Origin: Patescibacteria group bacterium
GTDB taxonomy: Bacteria; Patescibacteriota; Gracilibacteria; UM-FILTER-43-11
Direction of reading: 5' to 3'
Length of the DNA stretch: 36,855 bases
Assembly (NCBI GenBank): GCA_029260985.1
Contig: JAJDCE010000061.1
Coordinates: 1-36,855, forward strand
Shown piece after piece: positions 2,972-32,398 of this stretch. Numbering within the stretch: the first letter of the stretch is position 1; every line of letters begins with the position of its first letter. A model generated the notes under the pieces. It worked only from the letters and a program-made list of their open reading frames with translations, was not told the origin of the DNA and did not search any database. The position numbers were made by a program, and so were the translations under genes.

Positions 2972-3048
2972 TGGTGGGCGATGGAAGACTTGAACTTCCG
3001 ACCTCTACATTATCAGTGTAGCGCTCTAACCAGCTGAGCTAATCGCCC
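2972..3048 (-). tRNA. tRNA-Ile (anticodon GAU), CCA encoded
   Basis: Hand-folded cloverleaf: GGGCGAT/ATCGCCC acceptor, GCTC/GAGC D-stem, CTACA/TGTAG anticodon stem with loop CTGATAA, GGAAG/CTTCC T-stem with TTCAAGT loop, then ACCA. Total 77 nt. Confidence 0.93.
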
Positions 3049-5412: not shown

Positions 5413-6930
5413 CTATTTGACCAATTCACCCGTATAAACCACCTCGAAAGCAGAACCGGGAACCGATTTGAGCTGTCCCAGATCGTCATCATCCCACTTA
5501 GCATTGGTCTCACCCGTAATAAACCAATCGGAACCATTATCAGCCACAATCATCCCATACTTTTTCAAAGCCTTCAAAATCACCAAAGCATCACCGGTAA
5601 AACCGGAAAGATCATAACTGGCTTTCAATCGCAAACGAAGCCCCATGGGTGAATGATTGGGATTGGTGGAAGAACTTGCATAATGAGTAGCGGGCTTGAT
5701 GTAAGCACGTTGGGATTCGCTAACGGTAAATCGAAGGGCGTGATTAATTTCACCCGATTTCACCTCATCGTATCGAACCAAACCTGGGAAAATCGGTAAA
5801 CCTGCCGCGTCAGCAGACGTCCAGCCGTCGGGTCGAAGGGCATTAGAATTGAGATCAAAAATGGCTCCTGATCCAACCTCCCATCTTGAACCTGACCAGG
5901 TAGAATCAAACGTTTCGTAAAGCTTACAGGCATCGGTATCAATCACCAGAATATGCCCGTCACTCCCCGCTTCAATCTCGGCACCGGAAGGAATAGGATA
6001 TCCTTCAGCAGGAAGATCGCTTTCATCATCATAATAAGCGCTAATCGGCACTTTCTTTTGACTGCTATCCACAGTCATCCACGGAATTCCGTAATCCGGA
6101 TTAGAACCGAAATCAGGGTGAATATTAGAACGGCCAGATAGAATTGAATTGATATAGCCGTCTGAGTTTTCATGAAGAGAATAGCCTGAAACATCAGTAT
6201 TCCAAGGATTGTCCGCAGGGAAGACCTGACACGATCCGACCTTCGGCGCGTCAACAGAGTTTTGAGTTTTCTCCTCCACCTCTTGGCTCTCTACATATTG
6301 GTGGGCTTTAGCAATAATCTTAGCTGCTTCACCTCGAGTGATTTTATTTCCAGGGCCAAACCGACCATCATTATAACCCTGAACATACCCCTTCATTACT
6401 GCAAACTGGATGTATTTTTTAAACCATTGATTCGACACATCAGAAAAATTTGAAAAACCACCCTTAATATCTGCATCAGAAAAAGCTGACAGCAAAATCA
6501 TTTTTAAAGCTTCAGCACGGTTCACTGATGTATTTGGCCTAAAGGAGCCGTTTGCATATCCCTTCACCCAACCCATTTTTTTTGCCTTATAAACCGCTGG
6601 AGCATACCAGGCAGATTCACTCACATCATAAAAATCATCCGAAGTGGTCGTTAAATCGCTCCCAAATTTACATTGAGTGAGCATCTTCGCAAGTTCAGCC
6701 CGAGTAATGGGTGTATCAGGTCTGAATTCCCCCAAATATTCACCATCTGCATTCTTAAAGCCATAAATTTGACACTCAGTTTTCAACTTATCTGCAAATG
6801 CCTTAGACCAATGAGAAGAGGTATCCCTAAAATCACTAGGAGGAGTTGCTGCAAACGCCATCGTAAAATAAACCGCCGTTAAAAGTATAGCGACAATAAT
6901 CGACAGAAGAATATGTATCGGCTTTTTCAT
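5413..6930 (-). CDS. S-layer-homology (3x SLH) domain cell-wall protein with an uncharacterised conserved C-terminal domain
   Basis: Signal peptide followed by three SLH repeats (F.D......W....I........G.v.Gy.dG.FrP...itR.E.a.mi). The C-terminal ~280 aa contains TSADAAGLPIFPGLVRYDEV...HALRFT. Confidence 0.85.
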   Translation of the reverse strand: MKKPIHILLSIIVAILLTAVYFTMAFAATPPSDFRDTSSHWSKAFADKLKTECQIYGFKNADGEYLGEFRPDTPITRAELAKMLTQCKFGSDLTTTSDDFYDVSESAWYAPAVYKAKKMGWVKGYANGSFRPNTSVNRAEALKMILLSAFSDADIKGGFSNFSDVSNQWFKKYIQFAVMKGYVQGYNDGRFGPGNKITRGEAAKIIAKAHQYVESQEVEEKTQNSVDAPKVGSCQVFPADNPWNTDVSGYSLHENSDGYINSILSGRSNIHPDFGSNPDYGIPWMTVDSSQKKVPISAYYDDESDLPAEGYPIPSGAEIEAGSDGHILVIDTDACKLYETFDSTWSGSRWEVGSGAIFDLNSNALRPDGWTSADAAGLPIFPGLVRYDEVKSGEINHALRFTVSESQRAYIKPATHYASSSTNPNHSPMGLRLRLKASYDLSGFTGDALVILKALKKYGMIVADNGSDWFITGETNAKWDDDDLGQLKSVPGSAFEVVYTGELVK

Positions 6931-6990: not shown

Positions 6991-7796
6991 CCCGCCATTC
7001 CATCTGCATAAGCCTGCATTTTGGGGAAAGCCCTCTCAACCAAATAACGAACCATTCTGCGCAAACGATTAGCATCGCAATTAAAACCGGTTTCGAATCC
7101 AAATTTCTTAAGCAAAGTGCTTATGGTAGCATCCTGAGCATCCTGAAATCTGAGTAAAATTGCCCTAATATACCCCCTTCTGTCGTCCAAATTATACAAA
7201 CGGGTATCAATCTGAGTTAACTTACCCTCTCTTGCAATAACATCACCTACCTCAACACCACATTTCGACATTTCTATTTTGGAATGTATATCGGCATCTG
7301 GGAGCTTTAGATTGCTAATGCTGGGATTCAAAGTTTTCTTTCTAGGGTTTAAAACAGCACCAAACTCACCCAATAACTGACCCCCTACAATATCCAAACC
7401 TCTGCTATCGGACTGTCTAATAACCTGACCAATGCTAAAAATATCAAGCAATTGCCGCCTCACCTCTTCAGAATGGAATAAATGAGCCACTCTCAAAGTC
7501 TCAGCATCTAGATAGCCCTGACGTAAATAATATTCTGCCACCTCATGATGAACTTTGCCATTTCTAACCAACGTCTCACCATGATTCTCAGTGGGAGTTA
7601 CTGTAAGACCATGCCGACACTGAGTTTCATAATCAAATTCAGCCGCTTCAGGGCGAGGATCCTGCCAAATTTTACCAAACCAATTTGGTATTTTATGAAC
7701 CTCCCCTCTTTCTTCATCTAGCCAAACACTATGTTCAGCACCGGATGTCTGACGACCTTTTAACCTGACTATATCTGGATTACTGGATTTATTCAT
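6987..7796 (-). CDS. hypothetical protein, translationally coupled to queG
   Basis: 269-aa ORF. Its ATG overlaps the queG stop (ATGA, 7793-7796). I recognise no family. Confidence 0.7.
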   Translation of the reverse strand: MNKSSNPDIVRLKGRQTSGAEHSVWLDEERGEVHKIPNWFGKIWQDPRPEAAEFDYETQCRHGLTVTPTENHGETLVRNGKVHHEVAEYYLRQGYLDAETLRVAHLFHSEEVRRQLLDIFSIGQVIRQSDSRGLDIVGGQLLGEFGAVLNPRKKTLNPSISNLKLPDADIHSKIEMSKCGVEVGDVIAREGKLTQIDTRLYNLDDRRGYIRAILLRFQDAQDATISTLLKKFGFETGFNCDANRLRRMVRYLVERAFPKMQAYADGMAG

Positions 7797-8872
7797 GAAC
7801 AGTTCAAAGATAATTGATCAATAGCCCAACGGGCGTGGTCTACAAGCATATCATCAGATTCTCGATCCACAAAATCTTGAAGTAATGGGGTTAAGCTGAC
7901 ATCTCCTGAATTCCCAGCCACAACGCAAGCATTTCGGAGAAGGCCTCTCCGCTTCGCGCGCATTAATGGAGTACCCGCAAACTTTTCCAAAAACTCCTCA
8001 TCCGTTTTGATAGATAAAAGTTCTTTCAAATCTAAAGAACTCCCAACTCCTGACTCCGGACTAAGAACTTTTATAGTGACTGTCTGATGATGAGCTCTGC
8101 CAACATTAAAAGGACAAACCTCTTGGCAGATATCGCACCCGAACAAACGATTGCCGATTTTAGACCGAAGCTCTACCGGAATCCCCTCTTTATTTTCAAT
8201 CGTTAAATAAGATATACACTTCCGCGCATCAATCTGACCAGGTTTCACGATAGCACCGGTAGGACACGCCATCTGACACTTTTGGCAGTCTCCGCAATTC
8301 GGAAAATGCCGTTTTTCAGTCGGCCTAAGTTCTAAATTTGTATAAAGCGACGCTATAAAAAAGAAACTCCCCTTCGAAGGATCAATCAAACAGGAATTTT
8401 TACCAAAAAAACCAAGCCCAGCTGTCTCCGCCAACACCCGATCCACCGTCGGCCCACTATCGACCGAAACATACGTTTCGATTTCAGATTTCACATTTCT
8501 GATTTCAGATTTCAGCCAATCAGATAATTCAATAAGTCTTTTTTTAAGAACTTTGTGATAATCCTTCCCTCTCGCATACCGAGAAACAACTCCACTATTT
8601 GAGCCACGCGACGAAGGAGCTGAGCCACAATTGGAATATATCGCCCCCAATACAATCACTGATTTAATATCAGCCAATTTGTTCTCAGGATGAAATCGAT
8701 CCTCCTTCATCCGCTCCAAATAGTCTAAATCAGCTGAGAATCCTCTCTTCATCCAATCATCAAAAACCGCTTCATGTTTCTTCAAATTCTTCCTAATTTC
8801 CTCAAGCGAAACTACGCCATGAGTAGACCATCCTTGCCCTTCGATAAATTGTTCTAATTTTTTCGGATTCAT
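7793..8872 (-). CDS. queG: epoxyqueuosine reductase (tRNA queuosine biosynthesis)
   Basis: Two 4Fe-4S ferredoxin motifs (CGDCQKCQMACPTGAI; CDICQEVCPFN), GLGFFGKNSCLI, and a HEAT-like C-terminus. Length is typical of QueG. Confidence 0.9.
   Translation of the reverse strand: MNPKKLEQFIEGQGWSTHGVVSLEEIRKNLKKHEAVFDDWMKRGFSADLDYLERMKEDRFHPENKLADIKSVIVLGAIYSNCGSAPSSRGSNSGVVSRYARGKDYHKVLKKRLIELSDWLKSEIRNVKSEIETYVSVDSGPTVDRVLAETAGLGFFGKNSCLIDPSKGSFFFIASLYTNLELRPTEKRHFPNCGDCQKCQMACPTGAIVKPGQIDARKCISYLTIENKEGIPVELRSKIGNRLFGCDICQEVCPFNVGRAHHQTVTIKVLSPESGVGSSLDLKELLSIKTDEEFLEKFAGTPLMRAKRRGLLRNACVVAGNSGDVSLTPLLQDFVDRESDDMLVDHARWAIDQLSLNCS
8474..8515. repeat. six tandem heptamers (ATTTCAG family) in frame inside queG
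   Basis: cgtttcg atttcag atttcac atttctg atttcag atttcag gives 42 nt, or 14 codons (KSEIRNVKSEIET), in a variable loop of QueG. Confidence 0.85.
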
Positions 8873-8928
8873 AATATTACTTCTTCTGCCATTTTACCCC
8901 ATAAAACATTCCAAAAAAATGCAAAATA

Positions 8929-8937
8929 TGATATAAT
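8929..8937 (+). promoter_or_regulatory. extended -10 promoter (TGaTATAAT) for the K+ channel gene
   Basis: tgatataat at 8929-8937. The -35 is weak (TTCCAA at 8909-8914, 17-nt spacer). The predicted TSS near 8944 gives a ~129-nt leader. Confidence 0.4.
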
Positions 8938-8946
8938 ATAATAAAC

Positions 8947-8981
8947 ATTTCAGAATTCGCATTTCTGATTTGGCATTCAAT
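8947..8981. repeat. degenerate tandem heptamer array (ATTTCAG AATTCGC ATTTCTG ATTTGGC ATTCAAT)
   Basis: Seven-nt periodicity seen directly. Same unit family as inside queG. Confidence 0.7.
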
Positions 8982-9037
8982 CTTATACTTGAGAATTCTT
9001 ACATTCATTGCTAAATGAATAAATACTAAATGACATT

Positions 9038-9065
9038 ACGAAATCTGAAATCAGAAATACTAAAT
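9038..9065. repeat. inverted copy of the ATTTCWG heptamer array (ACGAAAT CTGAAAT CAGAAAT ACTAAAT)
   Basis: 9048-9058 (aaatcagaaat) is the exact complement of 8961-8971 (atttctgattt). The array ends 7 nt before the GTG start at 9073. Confidence 0.7.
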
Positions 9066-9072
9066 AAATAAC

Positions 9073-9648
9073 GTGGCTCAAACAAAAAAATTAAAAGAAA
9101 GCATCAAACTTCTCATAACCGCCATTTTCGCATTACTAGCTTTGGGCACCGTGGTTTTTAGCTATATTGAAGGTTGGAATTTAGTCGATTCTTTCTACTT
9201 TGTAACCATGACGGCTACCACAGTAGGCTACGGCGATTTCACCCCCACCCATGCACTGAGTAAAATAATCACGGTAATTTATTCTCTGGCCATCATCCCC
9301 TTTATCCTCTACGCCTTCACCGCCATCGCCAAATATGAAGTGGAACGGGTAAATAAACAAATTCATGGAATTGCTCTTAAACAAAAGGAAAATAAAGAAG
9401 AGATAGAAAAAGCAGAACGCAAGCTTCGTGATCAAAAACAACTAATGAAAGAGCAGGAAGAAATTCTGGAAAAACAGGAAAAACAACTTAAAAAACAGGT
9501 TGTAATCAATAAAGAACAGGAGGAAGAACTTGAAGGGCATCAGAAAAAAATCAGAAAGGCGGAAAAAGAACTAAAAGAGCATGATGAAGAACTGGAGGTT
9601 GTAGAGGAGGTTGTAGAGGAGCAAATAGCTAAAAAAATAAAAAAATAA
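9073..9648 (+). CDS. minimal two-TM potassium channel with a long charged coiled-coil C-terminal tail
   Basis: GTG start. Two TM helices flank the selectivity filter TTVGYGD. The C-terminal ~100 aa is K/E/Q-rich with heptad-like spacing. No RCK domain. Confidence 0.85.
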   Translation: MAQTKKLKESIKLLITAIFALLALGTVVFSYIEGWNLVDSFYFVTMTATTVGYGDFTPTHALSKIITVIYSLAIIPFILYAFTAIAKYEVERVNKQIHGIALKQKENKEEIEKAERKLRDQKQLMKEQEEILEKQEKQLKKQVVINKEQEEELEGHQKKIRKAEKELKEHDEELEVVEEVVEEQIAKKIKK

Positions 9649-9866: not shown

Positions 9867-10406
9867 ATGAGTATGGAGTTAAGCCTATCAATGAAAAGGT
9901 TTCTGGAAAAGGCAAGAGCCTGGCTGCTTCAGGGGATCGATATGATCGACGATCTCCTGGGAGCTAACGAAGCTGCCGACGAAGAAGGTCAGGCTGCTGG
10001 GGATCCACCGTCCGAAGAGCCTGCTCTCGCAGCAGCATCTGAGGAGGCCACAGCACCCGCCGAAGAGCCTGCAGCGGAAGAACCTGCCGTTGAGGAAGCC
10101 GAAGCCGAGGGTGAAGCCGATGATGAAGGCAACACCGAGACCGATGGTGACGGTGAAAGCGACGACGCCGATGGCGACACCGCCGATGGCGACACCGCCG
10201 AGACCGATGAAGGCAAAGGCGGCGGCGAGGCAGAAGAGCCTGATGCCGAGGGCGACGGCGAAAAGTCCGACGACGCTGAGGCCGAAGCCAAAGATGGTGA
10301 AGGCGACAGCAGCAACGATGGTGACGGCGAAGCCGAAGCCGACGCTGCACCCGCCGAAGAAACTGCAGCCGAAAAGGCCGAAGCAGAGGCCGCAACCCCT
10401 GCCTAA
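9867..10406 (+). CDS. extremely acidic low-complexity (E/A/D/G-rich) protein, compositionally atypical
   Basis: 179-aa ORF preceded by AGGAGA 7 nt upstream of the ATG. Amphipathic N-terminus, then a long Glu/Asp/Ala/Gly tract with a 15-nt tandem duplication (gccgatggcgacacc x2). About 65% G+C with C-ending codons. Confidence 0.65.
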   Translation: MSMELSLSMKRFLEKARAWLLQGIDMIDDLLGANEAADEEGQAAGDPPSEEPALAAASEEATAPAEEPAAEEPAVEEAEAEGEADDEGNTETDGDGESDDADGDTADGDTAETDEGKGGGEAEEPDAEGDGEKSDDAEAEAKDGEGDSSNDGDGEAEADAAPAEETAAEKAEAEAATPA

Positions 10407-10688: not shown

Positions 10689-12152
<1,464 letters not shown>

Positions 12153-13804: not shown

Positions 13805-13861
13805 CTATTTTCTATTTGGCTATCTGCTGTCAAAAAATAGCGATTAACAAATAGAAAATAG
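13805..13861. repeat. perfect 14-bp inverted repeat with a 29-nt spacer
   Basis: ctattttctatttg (13805-13818) and caaatagaaaatag (13848-13861), with an inner 5-bp gctat/atagc pair. Located between the antiporter and the small membrane ORF. Confidence 0.8.
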
Positions 13862-14800: not shown

Positions 14801-14829
14801 ATTATAATATTAATTAACTATATTGTCAA
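14801..14829 (-). promoter_or_regulatory. promoter TTGACA-N17-TATAAT (exact consensus)
   Basis: Reverse complement of 14824-14829 is TTGACA (overlapping the TGA stop of aroA-aroK) and of 14801-14806 is TATAAT. Confidence 0.65.
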
Positions 14830-16721
14830 CTAAAAACCCTCTCTAAGCTATCCCCCACCACCTTACCCGTCGTATTATCCCAAACATAGTCGGCATATCT
14901 AAGGTATAAATCACGTCGCTCCTGCCATATATCGTGAATTTCGGATATTGCCCCCTCACCCGTTAAACTAGGCCGTGTATTCGAATGTTTTTCAACACGT
15001 TCAGCCAAAACATTTGGATCAGCAAATATAAAAACATTCACTCCGTTTTTCTTCAAATTCTTCATATTTTCCTCATCCATCACAACCCCACCACCCGTAG
15101 CAATCACCAAGCCAGATTGATCAGCAAATTCCTGACACACCCGACTTTCTAATTTGCGAAAATGATCCCAACTTTTCTGCTCCACAATCTGATTAATAGA
15201 AAGTCCTGCCACCTTCTCAGTCTCATGATCCAGATCCACAAATGGTCGTTTAAGCAATTTAGCTATTTTCTTGCCGTGTCGCGTCTTTCCACTGCATCGC
15301 ATCCCCGTAAGTACCAAATTCTTATTTCCGAGCTTTATAGGCTTTGATAAATACATCCTCTCCAAGTCTTCCCAGAACTCTGGATAGGTTTTATCAGTAC
15401 ACCCAGGGTTTTCGATTCGGATTCCGGGTATTTTAGTCCCCACAACCGCAAAACACATTGCCATCCTGTGATCGTTATATGTATTAATCAAAACCTTCCC
15501 CTTGCCTTGAAGGCTGGATTGGCCAATCCAGCCTTCGGTACGAAGGGTATCGTTTGTTGTTTTCACCTTCACACCGATCTTCCCCAACTCTTTCTCCAAT
15601 GCGGCAAGTCGGTCGGTTTCCTTAATCCGTAAAGTTGATAAACCAGTAATCTTAATTTGACCTTTTATAAACGGAACCGTGCATGCCAATGTCATCGCAA
15701 CATCCGGCATATCTTCCATATCAATTTCGAGCTTTGAATTCAGATTTTTGAGATTTTTTAGAATAAAACCGTATCTCTCGTCACCTTGAATACTTTTTTT
15801 ATTCAACTTTTCAGTTTTAACTGAATTTAAAGCCAAATTCTCTTTATGAACAAGTTTTTTACTCAAACTTGGCGTCAAAAGGTTCGAAAATCCGACCTTT
15901 CCATCATGCAGATAAGCCATCGAAATCCAGTAACTGGACGCCGACGCATCACCTTCAATCCAATAATCACAAGCTTTGTAAGTTTGAGGTTTGATCTCAA
16001 AAGATCGGTAATTATTATTCTTAACCTTAACTCCAAAAGCCTTCATCACCTCAATAGTCGTATCAATATAGGGTTTACTCACCAATTCCCCTATCACCTC
16101 TATCTTAAGTGGTTTTGGCAGTAACGGCCCAAGCATTAGAAGTGCCGAGAAATACTGACTACTCTTATCCCCCTTCATCTGAACCGCAAGCTTAGTCCTT
16201 AGCCTGCCTGTCCGGTAGGCAGGTCCATAGTCCTTAGTCCTAATTATTTTAAGAGGTGGATAACCGGTTTTATTTAAATATTCAACCTGAACGCCAATCT
16301 GCCGTAAACCTTCCACCAAGTCCTTTATTGGTCGCTCCTGCATGCGCCTATCACCCGTAATGGTAGTTGTACCCTCCCTAATAGCCATAACGGCCGTTAA
16401 AAAGCGTGTAGCCGTCCCAGCATTATGCAGATCAAACATAAAATCCCCTTTCTCAAACCTTCCCCCACATCCTTCAATCCCTATTCCATTTCTTAATTCA
16501 CCTGTACTGAGCACGGTCGAAGTATAACTCTTAATTTTTAATTGCCGTAAGGCTTTCAGCATTACGACCGTATCATCCGATTCCAAAGCCCCATACAGCC
16601 CACTCTTCCCTTTCGCCAAAGCCGCACACAAAAAAGCACGATTGGTAATAGACTTGGATCCCGGCAGGGTAAGGAAAAAATCCAAGCTTTGCTTCAGTGG
16701 AATAACTTCTCTAAATTTCAT
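14826..16721 (-). CDS. aroA: bifunctional 3-phosphoshikimate 1-carboxyvinyltransferase (EPSP synthase) / shikimate kinase fusion
   Basis: N-terminal ~450 aa is class-I EPSPS-like (LPGSKSITNRA, SSQYFSALLM, LVSKPYIDTT, EGDASSASY, DHRMAM). The C-terminal ~170 aa has the shikimate-kinase P-loop GMRCSGKT plus a DLD motif. Confidence 0.88.
   Translation of the reverse strand: MKFREVIPLKQSLDFFLTLPGSKSITNRAFLCAALAKGKSGLYGALESDDTVVMLKALRQLKIKSYTSTVLSTGELRNGIGIEGCGGRFEKGDFMFDLHNAGTATRFLTAVMAIREGTTTITGDRRMQERPIKDLVEGLRQIGVQVEYLNKTGYPPLKIIRTKDYGPAYRTGRLRTKLAVQMKGDKSSQYFSALLMLGPLLPKPLKIEVIGELVSKPYIDTTIEVMKAFGVKVKNNNYRSFEIKPQTYKACDYWIEGDASASSYWISMAYLHDGKVGFSNLLTPSLSKKLVHKENLALNSVKTEKLNKKSIQGDERYGFILKNLKNLNSKLEIDMEDMPDVAMTLACTVPFIKGQIKITGLSTLRIKETDRLAALEKELGKIGVKVKTTNDTLRTEGWIGQSSLQGKGKVLINTYNDHRMAMCFAVVGTKIPGIRIENPGCTDKTYPEFWEDLERMYLSKPIKLGNKNLVLTGMRCSGKTRHGKKIAKLLKRPFVDLDHETEKVAGLSINQIVEQKSWDHFRKLESRVCQEFADQSGLVIATGGGVVMDEENMKNLKKNGVNVFIFADPNVLAERVEKHSNTRPSLTGEGAISEIHDIWQERRDLYLRYADYVWDNTTGKVVGDSLERVFS
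16191..16245. repeat. TAGTCCT-heptamer / GC-hairpin element inserted in frame in aroA
   Basis: cttagtcct tagcctg-cctgcc tgtccggta ggcagg-tcca tagtcct tagtcct. Encodes RTKDYGPAYRTGRLRTK in a loop ~12 aa longer than the corresponding E. coli AroA loop as I recall it. Confidence 0.8.
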
Positions 16722-19196: not shown

Positions 19197-19245
19197 TAGT
19201 CCCTAGTCCCTAGTCCCTAGTCCTTAGTCCTTAGTCCTTAGTCCC
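19197..19245. repeat. seven perfect-register tandem heptamers (TAGTCCC x3, TAGTCCT x3, TAGTCCC)
   Basis: Read directly. The array ends at the base before the TTG start at 19246. TAG/TAA appear in all frames on both strands. Confidence 0.95.
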
Positions 19246-20085
19246 TTGCTAATAGATTACCACCTACACAATCACTTCTCCCCAGACAGCGAAACTGACA
19301 CTACGCAACTGATTGAACATATGAGAGATTTGGGGATCAATCATCTCTGTATCACCAATCACGGGGAGTTTTTTATTCACGAAGAGGAAATTGTTGGAGT
19401 GTTTGAATATGCCGAAGCCCACAACCGCTTTCAGAAAGACAAAAATGAACTCGATGAGATAAGATCGAAATATCCTGATATGGACATCCGTTTTGGCATT
19501 GAGCTCCAATATCAGCCAGAATGTCACGACGATATAAAAAAATTGATGAACGAACTTCCCTTTGATTTTGCCCTGGGCTCCGTCCACTTCATCGACAATA
19601 TCATTATTTCAGGAGGAAAAAACGCCGGCCAGGCTTTTGAGAAAATGGATGAAGAAACCGCCTACAATAAATACTTCAACTCCATGCTCGAATGGGTTGA
19701 GTTAGCCTATTTTGATGTCGTCGCCCATTTCGATATCATCAAAAAGTTCGGCGTAAATTACTACGGGCCCTTTCAGCCCGAAAAATACAAAACAATCATC
19801 CAAAAGATCATCCAAAGCATGAAGGAAAAAGGAATTGGAATGGAACTGAATGCTGCCACTTTGCACAAACGCTGCAACGAAATAATGCCCCATCCTCAAA
19901 TCCTAAAATGGTGCCTGGAAGCTGGAATCGAAACCTTTACCCTCGGCACCGATGCCCATAATCTCGAAACCGCCGGAAAACTGATCCCCGAAGCCCTACA
20001 AATAGCCAAAGACGTGGGTATCACACATCTTTCCACCTTTAAGAATCGTCAACCAGTACGACATGAAATCCAAAGCGCAGAGTAG
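19246..20085 (+). CDS. PHP-domain phosphoesterase (HisJ-family histidinol-phosphatase-like)
   Basis: N-terminal DYHLHNHFSPDS metal-binding motif, with later GSVHF and GTDAHN motifs. TTG is the only plausible start upstream of DYHLH (in-frame TAG at 19225). Confidence 0.8.
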   Translation: MLIDYHLHNHFSPDSETDTTQLIEHMRDLGINHLCITNHGEFFIHEEEIVGVFEYAEAHNRFQKDKNELDEIRSKYPDMDIRFGIELQYQPECHDDIKKLMNELPFDFALGSVHFIDNIIISGGKNAGQAFEKMDEETAYNKYFNSMLEWVELAYFDVVAHFDIIKKFGVNYYGPFQPEKYKTIIQKIIQSMKEKGIGMELNAATLHKRCNEIMPHPQILKWCLEAGIETFTLGTDAHNLETAGKLIPEALQIAKDVGITHLSTFKNRQPVRHEIQSAE

Positions 20086-23100: not shown

Positions 23101-23160
23101 ACTTCCGATCAGGAAGGTTCCGAGGAGAACAGCCACTGCTTTTTTTAACTTTATAAACAT
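20116..23160 (-). CDS. type-I membrane surface protein: signal peptide, PKD-like repeats, DxDxDG Ca-binding-like modules, one TM helix, ~350-aa acidic Pro/Glu-rich cytoplasmic tail
   Basis: 1014 aa. Repeats contain YKWTV, FEWDYDGDG and YQWSFGD. A duplicated module has EYR[IL]D.NI[YF]EDSD.[ND]G..NDIDN. TM helix is IFFLLIVIVLGLILLIVGGFLAYL. The tail carries a KKKKRRRRRRKKKK patch. Confidence 0.85.
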   Translation of the reverse strand: MFIKLKKAVAVLLGTFLIGSGLVMASGKMEVKIGERADLIADSKNSAANYKWTVAKGTEILATQAGRNFSYTFNSQGEFKINLTATFGNEVESTTINVLSGDRYSRLSATPVSDAKLGDILRDEDGKALGTVGRNNVVVDETGKVIGTLNDSGEVVSKDGEVLGKATVATGASESLISIHLKTLPPMNGSDQVTLLGDGKVQFELADSYGDILEYRIDQNIYEDSDDNGTANNDIDNASDNSYLTGTAWSADYKQGDSAKTVAEVTLVDKSGKKVKKQVEILFEEHRTTGDPTAILQTLPKADETDSIIHLWEDSHTVSFYARPSEGRILEYRLDKNIFEDSDGDGDPKNDIDNLNDLSFKTGDVFDVDYAKTEEQIIAQLIVVGEEGKGSRVQKEITFGDKPASPAPSIKDVEQAGGIQLTADKDFVVKGDPILFTVQGLQQGLGQYSFEWDYDGDGTFDKEIEGDNTTQYIYDEPGAFTVTAKISDKAGNSAERTLDIVAKDVELTKANFSYEVSGSTVSFTNLSSASYNLTDKNLFYQWSFGDTDDSNYQNQIAEIGGENPTYSYTVKGKYLVTLTITDSDQVTDTKSTEIEIADAADVVGAEDGAMMVTGGEEQEVKKSNVFIRLLKIFFLLIVIVLGLILLIVGGFLAYLKVQHPDLTFEELIDEFKAKVLTMIGAHEAPPVTPQATEAPSADVPTPTDQPSVKATDDSAAEVVAEPTAPQTFAETTEAPEPAQEEAPAEPAVGSEPVEADFTTEAEGPVPEWLKGTEVIEGEAEEEISLDNAESIDEESFELPVEDESPEPLSDESPEFSEDYSSPEEGIETPMPAEEPLDILGEGYSEPSLDEELPVDEAAEEIIEEVPVAPETSEPTTEEVMPEEMPTEEVSEPLTEEVPVEEKTDEVPAEEPAPEMPKAPVVPPVETPEGEAPKKKKRRRRRRKKKKPAAESDQQFAPEGGQAAISDQPETPVDPTPEAPQSETPPVQETPPLSEGDTSAGADEKGPTPDWIKPQ

Positions 23161-23200
23161 TTAATCTTCTAATCTTTTAATCTTGAATCTTGTAATTTAA
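23161..23200. repeat. tandem 7-8-nt repeats (TAATCTTN x3, AATCTTG) filling the gap between the two giant genes
   Basis: t taatcttc taatcttt taatcttg aatcttg taattta, immediately upstream (minus strand) of the ATG at 23160. Confidence 0.8.
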
Positions 23201-27201: not shown

Positions 27202-27636
27202 TTACTGTTTCTGAATACCCGTTACCAGCTCCTGGGTAAGGAGTTGGACAATGCTGTAAGAAAGAATCACAACAATCAGGCCGAGTACCGCATAAATCAT
27301 CACCTTCTTGGCCTTCTGAACCTGCTCATCATTACCATAAGCCGTGATATACAAAACCCCAGCGTAAACAAAGCCGACAAAAGCCGCAATCGCCAGGAAC
27401 GGTAAGGCAAAATTCACATATTTTAGCACCAAATCTCCTACATCACTCGTTCCAGTCACCCCACTACCCTCAAGAGAACCTTTAATATTATCCACTCCCG
27501 ACTGAGTATCTGTCTTTGTTTTATCTTCAGAGCCCTTAAAGATCTGAGCCAACCCCTTAGGCGCAAAAGCAAAAAACAGCACCATCACTGAGATGATTCT
27601 GCTATAAACATTTTGAATTATTTGTGCAATTTTCAT
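27202..27636 (-). CDS. VirB2/TrbC-like (T4SS-pilin-type) small membrane protein
   Basis: 144 aa. Signal peptide ending GLAQ, then two TM helices joined by a short basic loop (YGNDEQVQKAKK). This architecture matches conjugative-pilin-like proteins abundant in CPR genomes. Confidence 0.75.
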   Translation of the reverse strand: MKIAQIIQNVYSRIISVMVLFFAFAPKGLAQIFKGSEDKTKTDTQSGVDNIKGSLEGSGVTGTSDVGDLVLKYVNFALPFLAIAAFVGFVYAGVLYITAYGNDEQVQKAKKVMIYAVLGLIVVILSYSIVQLLTQELVTGIQKQ

Positions 27637-27669
27637 TTTTATTTCTGAACCTTAAGTGCGTGTAATTGG

Positions 27670-27704
27670 GCTTAAAGCTTAAAGCTTACTGCTTACGGCT
27701 TTTT
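27670..27704. repeat. tandem heptamers GCTTAAA GCTTAAA GCTTACT GCTTACG GCTTTTT in the pilin-gene leader
   Basis: Read directly. Lies between the predicted TSS (~27710) and the ATG at 27636. Confidence 0.85.
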
Positions 27705-32320: not shown

Positions 32321-32398
32321 GAACTAAGGGCTAGGGATTAAGGACTAAGTTGCATTTTTTTAATAAGACCTAGTCCCTAGTCCTTAGTCCCTAGTCCC
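32321..32398. repeat. long imperfect hairpin built from inverted TAGTCCY heptamer arrays
   Basis: The left arm 32321-32349 (..ctaagggctagggattaaggactaag) is the inverted complement of the right arm 32371-32398 (tagtccc tagtcct tagtccc tagtccc). About 27 paired positions counting G-U, with a 21-nt loop. Confidence 0.85.

Follow-up and report, generated by a model that had tools for sequence, protein, structure and literature searches.

A heptanucleotide array in frame within queG of a Patescibacteria genome, probably a microsatellite in a permissive linker

We analysed a 36,855-nucleotide (nt) contig of a Patescibacteria group bacterium (JAJDCE010000061.1, assembly GCA_029260985.1; the whole stretch is called the window here), in which the queuosine gene queG carries a tandem array with a 7-nt period in its reading frame. 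The array is probably a heptamer microsatellite like the short tandemly repeated repetitive (STRR) sequences of cyanobacteria, kept up by slippage and recombination inside a permissive linker, in an enzyme that can be dispensed with, while selection for an open frame acts as a filter. It is a known kind of repeat in a new lineage, the Peregrinibacteria, which belong to the Candidate Phyla Radiation (CPR), and no new mechanism. Seen against the clade-wide pattern, the queG case by itself is ordinary; the recurrence of arrays at one site with turnover of the unit, and the CPR host, are worth recording.

The array in queG and its reading frame

The gene and the array, with the evidence for each, are as follows.

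7793–8872, minus strand: queG, tRNA epoxyqueuosine(34) reductase, 359 amino acids (TIGR00276, PDB 5d08, Cys motifs)
8474–8515, minus strand: in-frame heptamer array, six 7-nt slots (sequence, Tandem Repeats Finder (TRF), codon resampling)

The open reading frame (ORF) of queG matches the TIGR00276 equivalog at 3.4e-92 (309 bits; cut-off 200) and B. subtilis QueG (PDB 5d08) at 8e-55. The two 4Fe-4S cysteine motifs, C193/C196/C199/C203 and C246/C249/C253, are invariant in an alignment of 34 QueGs of 61–75% identity. The TGA stop of the gene overlaps the ATG of the next one. TGA is a genuine stop in this organism, because 10 of the 33 long frames of the window end in it, queG among them. Genetic code 25, in which TGA is read as glycine in some Gracilibacteria, was rejected for this reason, queG being closed by TGA where its homologs end.

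On the coding strand the array reads CTGAAAT, CTGAAAT, CAGAAAT, GTGAAAT, CTGAAAT and CGAAACG, and it codes for L120-KSEIRNVKSEIET-133 of QueG. TRF reports a period of 7 over 8476–8515 (5.9 copies, 85% matches), as well as an additional 21-nt period with a 94% match. The units differ at 1–4 positions, and no perfect run exceeds 15 nt (2.1 units). A reading made from the sequence alone (hereafter the sequence-only reading) had described a six-unit array at this place inside QueG, and the sequence, TRF and TIGR00276 agree with it. Its units 1, 2, 4 and 5 do contain TGA as described, although unit 4 is GTGAAAT and not the consensus.

Counted from the ATG at 8872, the TGA slot of units 1–6 lies in phases 1, 2, 0, 1, 2 and 0. 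It is in frame solely in units 3 and 6, where the codons are AGA and GAA, and this independent recalculation reproduces the frames proposed from the sequence. All four out-of-frame TGAs are retained. A slip of one unit in either direction would frameshift queG, as had been predicted, and TGA would then be met within the array in both alternative frames.

Two of the six slots belong to the ancestral gene. Slot 8509–8515 (unit 1, CTG AAA T) comprises the codons of the invariant Leu120 and a conserved Lys, and slot 8474–8480 (unit 6, C GAA ACG) the conserved Glu-Thr codons, which are found in array-less orthologs too. Judged from this alignment, the derived repeat units are the middle four only.

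The periodicity was tested against two nulls. Codons were drawn from the codon usage of the window itself with the peptide held fixed, and only 6 of 20,000 resamples came up to the observed lag-7 match (0.66). The periodicity therefore resides in the nucleotide sequence, and the peptide repeat KSEIRNV/KSEIETY is a by-product. Under a second-order Markov null, about 0.2 period-7 arrays this strong are expected per 92 kb.

The sequence-only reading saw evidence of domestication in the substitutions lying exactly where TGA would be in frame. An intact ORF cannot hold in-frame stops; the pattern is thus required, being a precondition of the observation, and is not independent evidence. Moreover, six of the eight clade arrays at the QueG linker (see below) use units without a stop in any frame. 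Unit 6, with its ancestral Glu-Thr codons, cannot be counted as a mutated repeat unit. In both non-coding spacer arrays the unit 3 variant CAGAAAT (ATTTCTG on the plus strand) recurs with the same neighbours beside it, so that an in-place stop-destroying mutation of unit 3 cannot be demonstrated. In the related locus L081, whose unit ATCATAA carries TAA, both in-frame slots are GAA and three of five out-of-frame stops are kept. The kept out-of-frame stops are a signature of selection filtering which arrays survive in the gene.

The array segment is bounded by the invariant L120 ('DWLK') and the conserved 'ETY.SVDSGP'. In an AlphaFold (AF2) model (predicted template modelling score, pTM, 0.75) it spans the end of helix 105–123, loop 124–132 and the start of strand 133–137, which agrees with the variable loop first named as its location. 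The alignment with B. subtilis QueG has a 4-residue gap at this site. The L-to-Y stretch of array-less clade relatives has 11 amino acids and that of the window 15 (net +4). Delimited a little differently, the segment has 14 in 44 of 60 distant QueGs and 17 in the window (about +3). By these alignments the net gain at the linker is 3–4 codons. The structural position is permissive, a length-variable surface linker, and residues 121–132 of QueG can be marked as dispensable. A 14-codon insert had been proposed, with its restriction to the lineage as a point to check; the restriction stands, none of 60 distant linkers being periodic, but the size does not. The wider proposal of a repeat expansion invading a housekeeping gene agrees with the DNA-level periodicity and with the unit family shared with the spacer, but not with the absence of a 14-codon insert or with the ancestral units 1 and 6.

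Heptamer arrays at the QueG linker and across the clade

Upstream of queG, the spacer towards a divergent channel gene contains arrays of the same unit family, as the sequence-only reading had noticed.

8888–8939, minus strand: conserved non-repeat part of the spacer, with motifs GGGGTAAAATGGC and ATATTATATCATATTTT on the queG strand (spacer comparison)
8946–8977, unstranded: spacer array 1, ATTTCAG, AATTCGC, ATTTCTG, ATTTGGC on the plus strand (TRF)
9037–9065, unstranded: spacer array 2, CGAAAT, CTGAAAT, CAGAAAT, ACTAAAT on the plus strand (TRF, repeat comparison)
9073–9648, plus strand: two-transmembrane K+ channel-like gene (Ion_trans_2), divergent from queG (domain match, gene calls)

Spacer array 1 has the orientation of the genic array and lies about 75–105 nt upstream of the queG ATG, and spacer array 2 is inverted relative to both and ends 8 nt before the GTG of the channel gene. 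Genic positions 8481–8505 and spacer positions 8947–8971 are identical at 23 of 25 nt, with the variant units in the same order. Genic 8488–8513 is complementary to spacer 9040–9065 (26 nt, 88%, inverted), a region which is also complementary to 8947–8959 (13 nt, 92%). The motifs of 8888–8939 are common to the window and to loci L082, L165, L166 and L167, and this part is probably the promoter region, although the sigma-70 consensus did not flag it; a scan of 8400–9150 for sigma-70 promoters and terminators found nothing. No Rfam element was found at the arrays. Inspection and a repeat search, made for this locus only, showed no defined termini, terminal inverted repeats or target-site duplication at 8400–9100. 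The synteny of queG and the channel gene is conserved in the clade.

We compared the DNA of 20 further clade queG loci (L083 duplicates L082), collected by tblastn, through single-protein look-ups and by a metagenome pattern scan giving at least four close relatives. For the window organism itself, the best QueG match is only 75% and no close relative was found. Besides the window, seven species are 7-nt periodic at exactly the same linker site, each with different units.

L001: TTCGAAR
L002: WCCAATG
L003: CGNNAAT
L081: ATCATAA
L082: CSAGAAT/CGAAAAT
L165: AATCARC
L167: KGTCAAA

Such arrays are thus not private to this genome. Interrupted remnants are found at the linker of L005, L084 and L166, and the linker is aperiodic in eight short-linker orthologs (L004, L006, L007, L085–L088, L169) and in L168. 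The synonymous-codon test gave similar results in the seven other periodic species, with 12–163 of 20,000 resamples reaching the observed lag-7 value. The mean lag-7 match of the 60 distant QueG loci is 0.27 and the maximum 0.44.

Every linker array starts at, and in register with, the Leu-Lys/Asn codons, which are conserved; arrays of the GAAAT type end in the conserved Glu-Thr codons. Two-unit proto-repeats are present in short orthologs, CCGAAGG CCGAAAC in L086 and TCCGACA TCCGAAA in L087. Both the register and the proto-repeats are what local slippage seeding predicts. In a rough neighbour-joining tree of QueG, short and array-bearing linkers are interspersed and the unit type KSNVKGQMSNVE is found on several branches, so arrays persist and turn over by repeated gain, loss or exchange; the tree is too weak to tell one origin with losses from several origins, and recombination in L168/L169 blurs it further.

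Over most of a 2-kb comparison L168 and L169 share at least 97% identity, which falls to 56–67% over about 280 nt of queG. The divergent stretch (L168 10225–10500) reaches from loop 1 to the linker and takes in the two loops that bear repeats as well as the conserved helix that separates them. Exchange does take place, and the mosaic suggests that a divergent allele segment was imported by recombination. The linker and the other arrays of the two loci differ through segment replacement, without a clean change in copy number. L168 and L169 likewise diverge at the 3' end of the channel gene, after which L169 has an inverted GAAATYC heptamer pair.

Relatives also carry repeats at other places in queG. 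Period-7 arrays were found in a second loop, at residues about 246–279 (L081 4786–4817, L166 10870–10895). In loop 1 (window residues about 82–93) there are period-11 arrays in L085 (1537–1614) and L005 (2318–2356) and period-12 arrays in L086 (564–613), L166 (10230–10339) and L168 (10235–10279). The 11-nt units also cycle through the three frames. All of these extra repeat regions are regions with a predicted local distance difference test (pLDDT) value below 50 in the model.

Among the tandem repeats of the clade, period 7 is the dominant one: 22 arrays were observed in 92 kb, where 0.2 are expected. Heptamers were counted by TRF with the second-order Markov null and by lag-match windows, a strict perfect-run detector being too stringent for imperfect arrays. 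In total, 50 period-7 arrays were found in 179 kb of clade DNA (27.9 per 100 kb); the density is 4.4 per 100 kb for other phyla (971 kb) and 2.0 for AT-rich controls. Period 7 is the commonest period in other phyla as well, in agreement with the literature. Intergenic DNA holds about five times as many arrays per unit length as coding sequence (34.6 vs 7.1 per 100 kb), and 7 is the sole well-represented period in coding sequence that is not divisible by 3.

Unit families were defined as exact canonical units shared between loci, since single-linkage clustering chained all A/T-rich units and was not usable; their dispersion was judged on 36.9 kb of this genome. CWGAAAT units are dispersed at 8476–8515, 8946–8977 and 9037–9065, and TAGTCCY units at 16223, 19197, 32322 and 32369. 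The AAATCWG unit is found at unrelated loci in at least seven species, and the TAGTCCY/AGGACTA family in the window, L084 and L169. Inverted heptamer pairs are frequent, for example at 13805/13848 and 32322/32369 of the window and in the spacers of L084, L166 and L168.

A second housekeeping gene of the window also carries such a repeat.

16223–16241, minus strand: second in-frame mini-array, AGGACTA AGGACTA TGGAC (x2.7), peptide RTKDYG (TRF)

This mini-array lies inside an aroA-aroK fusion gene, which joins 5-enolpyruvylshikimate-3-phosphate (EPSP) synthase and shikimate kinase (14826–16721, minus strand). The L169 aroA-aroK gene has three in-frame arrays, at 1887–1915, 2161–2232 and 2856–2886: TCGAAAA x4 (KLEIRKSKIEN), a 77-nt AAACTCC/AAGTTCC array, and AGGACTA x4.4 (GLRTKDYGL). 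The site of the window mini-array is orthologous to that of the 77-nt array. The queG array is therefore one case of a general behaviour, and the idea that genic heptamer arrays are confined to queG was withdrawn.

The remaining arrays of the window are outside genes.

13805–13861, unstranded: CTATTTT-type inverted pair with 14-nt perfect arms (13805–13818 and 13848–13861), just after a Na+/H+ exchanger gene
19197–19246, unstranded: TAGTCCY x7.1 array, intergenic, directly upstream of a PHP-domain ORF (TRF)
23160–23196, unstranded: TTTAATC-type array that takes up the 44-nt spacer separating two genes for PKD-domain surface proteins
27669–27701, unstranded: GCTTAAA/GCTTACN x4.7 intergenic array, upstream of ORF 27202–27636 (minus strand)
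32322–32398, unstranded: TAGTCCY-family inverted pair, directly upstream of an hflX-like GTPase gene (TRF)

The array at 19197–19246 shares its unit family with 16223 and 32369. The pair at 32322–32398 consists of GGACTAA-type units (32322–32349) and CCTAGTC x4.3 (32369–32398), about 19 nt apart. Both of these TAGTCCY arrays are hairpin-capable arrangements at gene starts.

Longer tracts were seen in other loci. At a contig end, L085 has a perfect 18-copy CAAATCT array (1–127); long perfect heptamer tracts thus exist in the clade, and they probably break assemblies. In the distant QueG set, unrelated lineages have dense heptamer arrays of up to 22 copies just downstream of queG (L094, L097, L098 at about 6480–6610, L147, L160 and L060), so that heptamer-rich genomes occur in several phyla of these data.

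Origin of the array and alternative explanations

The gene queG is non-essential, that is, dispensable, in model bacteria. Under the explanation that we favour, a heptamer microsatellite in a permissive linker, slipped-strand mispairing would expand the flanking codons of the linker itself, in which the seeds (CTG AAA T... on the 5' side and ...C GAA ACN on the 3' side) are already unit-like. Sequence exchange with the same-family spacer arrays, about 450–550 nt away, may also take part. Each 7-nt step would shift the frame, and only alleles with a total length that is a multiple of 3 and without an in-frame stop would be retained, which would lead to the pattern seen in the sequence-only reading. 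As the linker tolerates changes of length and sequence and queG can be dispensed with, out-of-frame intermediates would be survivable and could later be corrected. Through such intermediates a non-triplet repeat could persist and turn over at one site across species. The peptide KSEIRNVKSEIE would need no function of its own.

Several observations weigh against this explanation. The net linker gains over the short form are +6, +12, +15 and +21 nt, mostly not multiples of 7, so that the mere addition of units does not suffice without compensating indels or recombination. Five linker arrays are built a-b-a-b (14 nt), and their last duplication step would break the frame. Seven of the nine lag-7 genic arrays of the sampled DNA are in queG, which could mean a cause specific to queG, although no other gene is common to all sampled loci. 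Finally, the 19-mer AGGACTAAGGACTATGGAC is identical at non-orthologous aroA sites of the window and L169, including a TAA-to-TAT change at the in-frame slot, and this sharing fits the copying of pre-formed arrays better than local growth.

Such copying is the core of the first alternative, which we regard as unlikely. A pre-formed block of the same family would have been copied into queG by ectopic gene conversion, by template switching during repair or as a small mobile repeat, overwriting the ancestral linker. The match of the genic array to spacer array 1 in sequence and in order of variants, its inverted match to spacer array 2, the spread of AAATCWG over unrelated loci in at least seven species and of TAGTCCY/AGGACTA over three, the shared AGGACTAAGGACTATGGAC and the gains that are not multiples of 7 are all consistent with it, and the cassette of about 280 nt in L168/L169, from loop 1 to the linker, argues for recombination at this place. 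However, the window locus showed neither defined termini nor target-site duplications or inverted repeats at its flanks, and the genic unit does not recur nearby in most other species. All arrays are in register with the conserved Leu-Lys codons, as local seeding predicts, and low-complexity arrays of one family can match by convergence.

A contingency locus is slightly more doubtful still. Here queG, which encodes the last step of queuosine-tRNA synthesis, would be switched ON and OFF in a fraction of the cells by programmed slippage as in neuO (see below), with the imperfect units tuning the rate. The unit is not divisible by 3 in length and the array is inside the reading frame, where a slip of +/-7 nt truncates the protein at once. 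Species that diverged deeply, with synonymous divergence saturated, still keep arrays at one site, which points to continuing homogenisation, and the further period-7 and period-11 tracts at two other queG loops of relatives would suit such a switch, as would the non-essential nature of the gene. On the other side, the tracts are short (4–6 units) and imperfect, with no perfect run above 15 nt in the window. All 20 full-length queG loci are in frame (20/20), seven of them having been found by tblastn regardless of ORF integrity, and similar in-frame arrays are present in aroA-aroK, an unlikely target for switching.

One database allele has to be weighed separately. A search for truncated OFF alleles, by N-terminal-only proteins, gave three proteins, of which one (P0121, locus L170) ends in the linker. 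In this 617-nt scaffold the N-terminal QueG ORF ends at 578–589, at an in-frame TGA two codons after 'HFLK' and thus two codons into the linker. Such an allele would speak for a switch. However, no frame of the last 28 nt of L170 matches queG, and the scaffold may have the chimeric end of a contig, or else be a broken allele. We disfavour phase variation: the tracts are short, with imperfect units, and of 21 alleles seen 20 are intact, with the ambiguous L170 as the exception.

We think it improbable, a shade more so than a switch in queG alone, that the tracts of queG (three loops) and aroA-aroK are together contingency switches maintained in subpopulations, or that the lineage has a dedicated process generating and spreading 7-nt arrays. 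If this were true, phase variation would act on core translation and metabolism, and not on the usual surface antigens, in an episymbiotic bacterium with a small genome. Phase variation of queG, if real, would link microsatellite switching to queuosine-dependent translation.

A cis-acting role of the repeats is very unlikely. In this explanation the GAAATCNGAAATC repeats would be DNA or RNA sites of a regulator by which queG and the K+ channel are co-ordinated, and the copy in queG would be an internal operator or mRNA site. The 19-nt string GAAATCTGAAATCAGAAAT would indeed be on the sense strand in both the queG mRNA and the 5' leader of the channel gene, inverted heptamer pairs are found beside the channel start in several species (the L166 spacer also has ATTTCAG/CAGAAAT), and the synteny of the two genes is conserved. 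However, the genic-site units are wholly different among species (CCAATGW, CAATCAR, GTCAAAK, ATCATAA), so that no sequence-specific site is conserved, and genic and spacer units are unrelated in most species. The arrays have no Rfam match and no promoter-like or terminator-like signal, and a seven-base spacing is unusual for protein binding aligned on one helix face.

Lastly, a 7-residue duplication (KSEIRNV/KSEIETY) selected for structure, or chance, with an incidental 7-nt period, is effectively refuted: the 21-nt TRF period and the period-7-residue peptides of several orthologs would suit a protein-level repeat, but the peptide-fixed resampling opposes it, in the window as in the other seven species (no more than 163 of 20,000), and the rarity of such arrays under the Markov null and the unit in non-coding DNA argue against both.

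Other window features and comparison with known systems

A complete 16S rRNA gene (10689–12152, minus strand) lies about 7.6 kb from tRNA-Ile(GAT) (2972–3048, minus strand), with protein genes (queG, the K+ channel, SLH and other surface proteins) in between. No 23S gene was detected in the window, and the rRNA operon therefore appears unlinked. A weak second tRNA-like Rfam match at 2636–2696 was not confirmed by ARAGORN. Adjoining the 16S gene, ORF 9867–10406 encodes a very acidic low-complexity protein rich in Ala, Glu, Asp and Gly, with a perfect 15-nt repeat (10166–10201) and no family match; it is much more G+C-rich than the window (42% G+C).

At the protein level the closest reference is B. 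subtilis QueG (PDB 5d08, 5t8y), with the same enzyme family and fold and a conserved order of helix (KDYH...L..FLK), linker and strand (..VDTG). Its linker (SKHEDIRT) is 4 residues shorter and has no nucleotide periodicity, as in the 60 other distant QueGs.

Upstream repeats of the same unit length are known from the promoters of hmw1A and hmw2A of Haemophilus influenzae, where the number of copies of a 7-bp simple sequence repeat (SSR) grades the transcription of the adhesins (PMC8262952). The spacer arrays at 8946–9065 are comparably placed upstream of a gene, but they are short, imperfect and in inverted pairs.

The neuO gene of the E. coli K1 prophage CUS-3 has a heptanucleotide variable number tandem repeat, 5'-AAGACTC-3', of 3–53 perfect units, and 66% of genomes are OFF (PMC13001214). 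As in queG, the repeat is in the coding sequence and is translated through three frames, full-length protein arises only from a total that keeps the frame, and a slip of one unit abolishes the product. In contrast, the neuO tract stands at the 5' end of a gene for surface modification and is OFF in most genomes, whereas here four derived, imperfect units are in an internal linker of a housekeeping enzyme, and every allele but the ambiguous L170 is ON.

The best counterparts are the heptameric SSRs that are over-represented in many bacteria, such as the STRR/GGGGAYT family of Calothrix and Nostoc and the GGGAATC family of Xanthomonas (PMC4692102, citing Mrazek 2007). These are dispersed families, mainly intergenic and sometimes in inverted pairs, with an intragenic share of 7–11% in Xanthomonas (GGGAATC) and roughly 32% not intergenic in Nostoc (GGGGAYT); their loci are conserved and their lengths vary between relatives, and slippage tied to the polymerase footprint has been proposed (PMC4692102). 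The arrays described here are alike in having a 7-nt unit in a few to tens of tandem copies, one family over many loci and an excess of period 7. They are also mostly intergenic near gene ends, with occasional hairpin-capable inverted pairs and a minority in ORFs, and the locus is kept while length and sequence vary between related species. They differ in their A/T-rich units (CWGAAAT, TAGTCCY and others), which cannot form G-quadruplexes, in the several unrelated units per genome and in the use of different units by different species at one protein site. Our literature search found no report of such repeats in Peregrinibacteria, and the Peribacteria genome paper does not mention them. The heptameric microsatellite excess of cyanobacteria and xanthomonads thus exists, strongly, in a Peregrinibacteria clade as well. 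Non-triplet repeats can live for long evolutionary times in housekeeping enzymes, in one permissive loop, with the unit turning over. Loop peptides such as KSEIRN... and RTKDYG... are to be read as translated repeat DNA and not as functional motifs, and the repeats can break assemblies and gene calls. These arrays offer a natural system for following how frame-breaking repeats arise, stay in frame and are exchanged.

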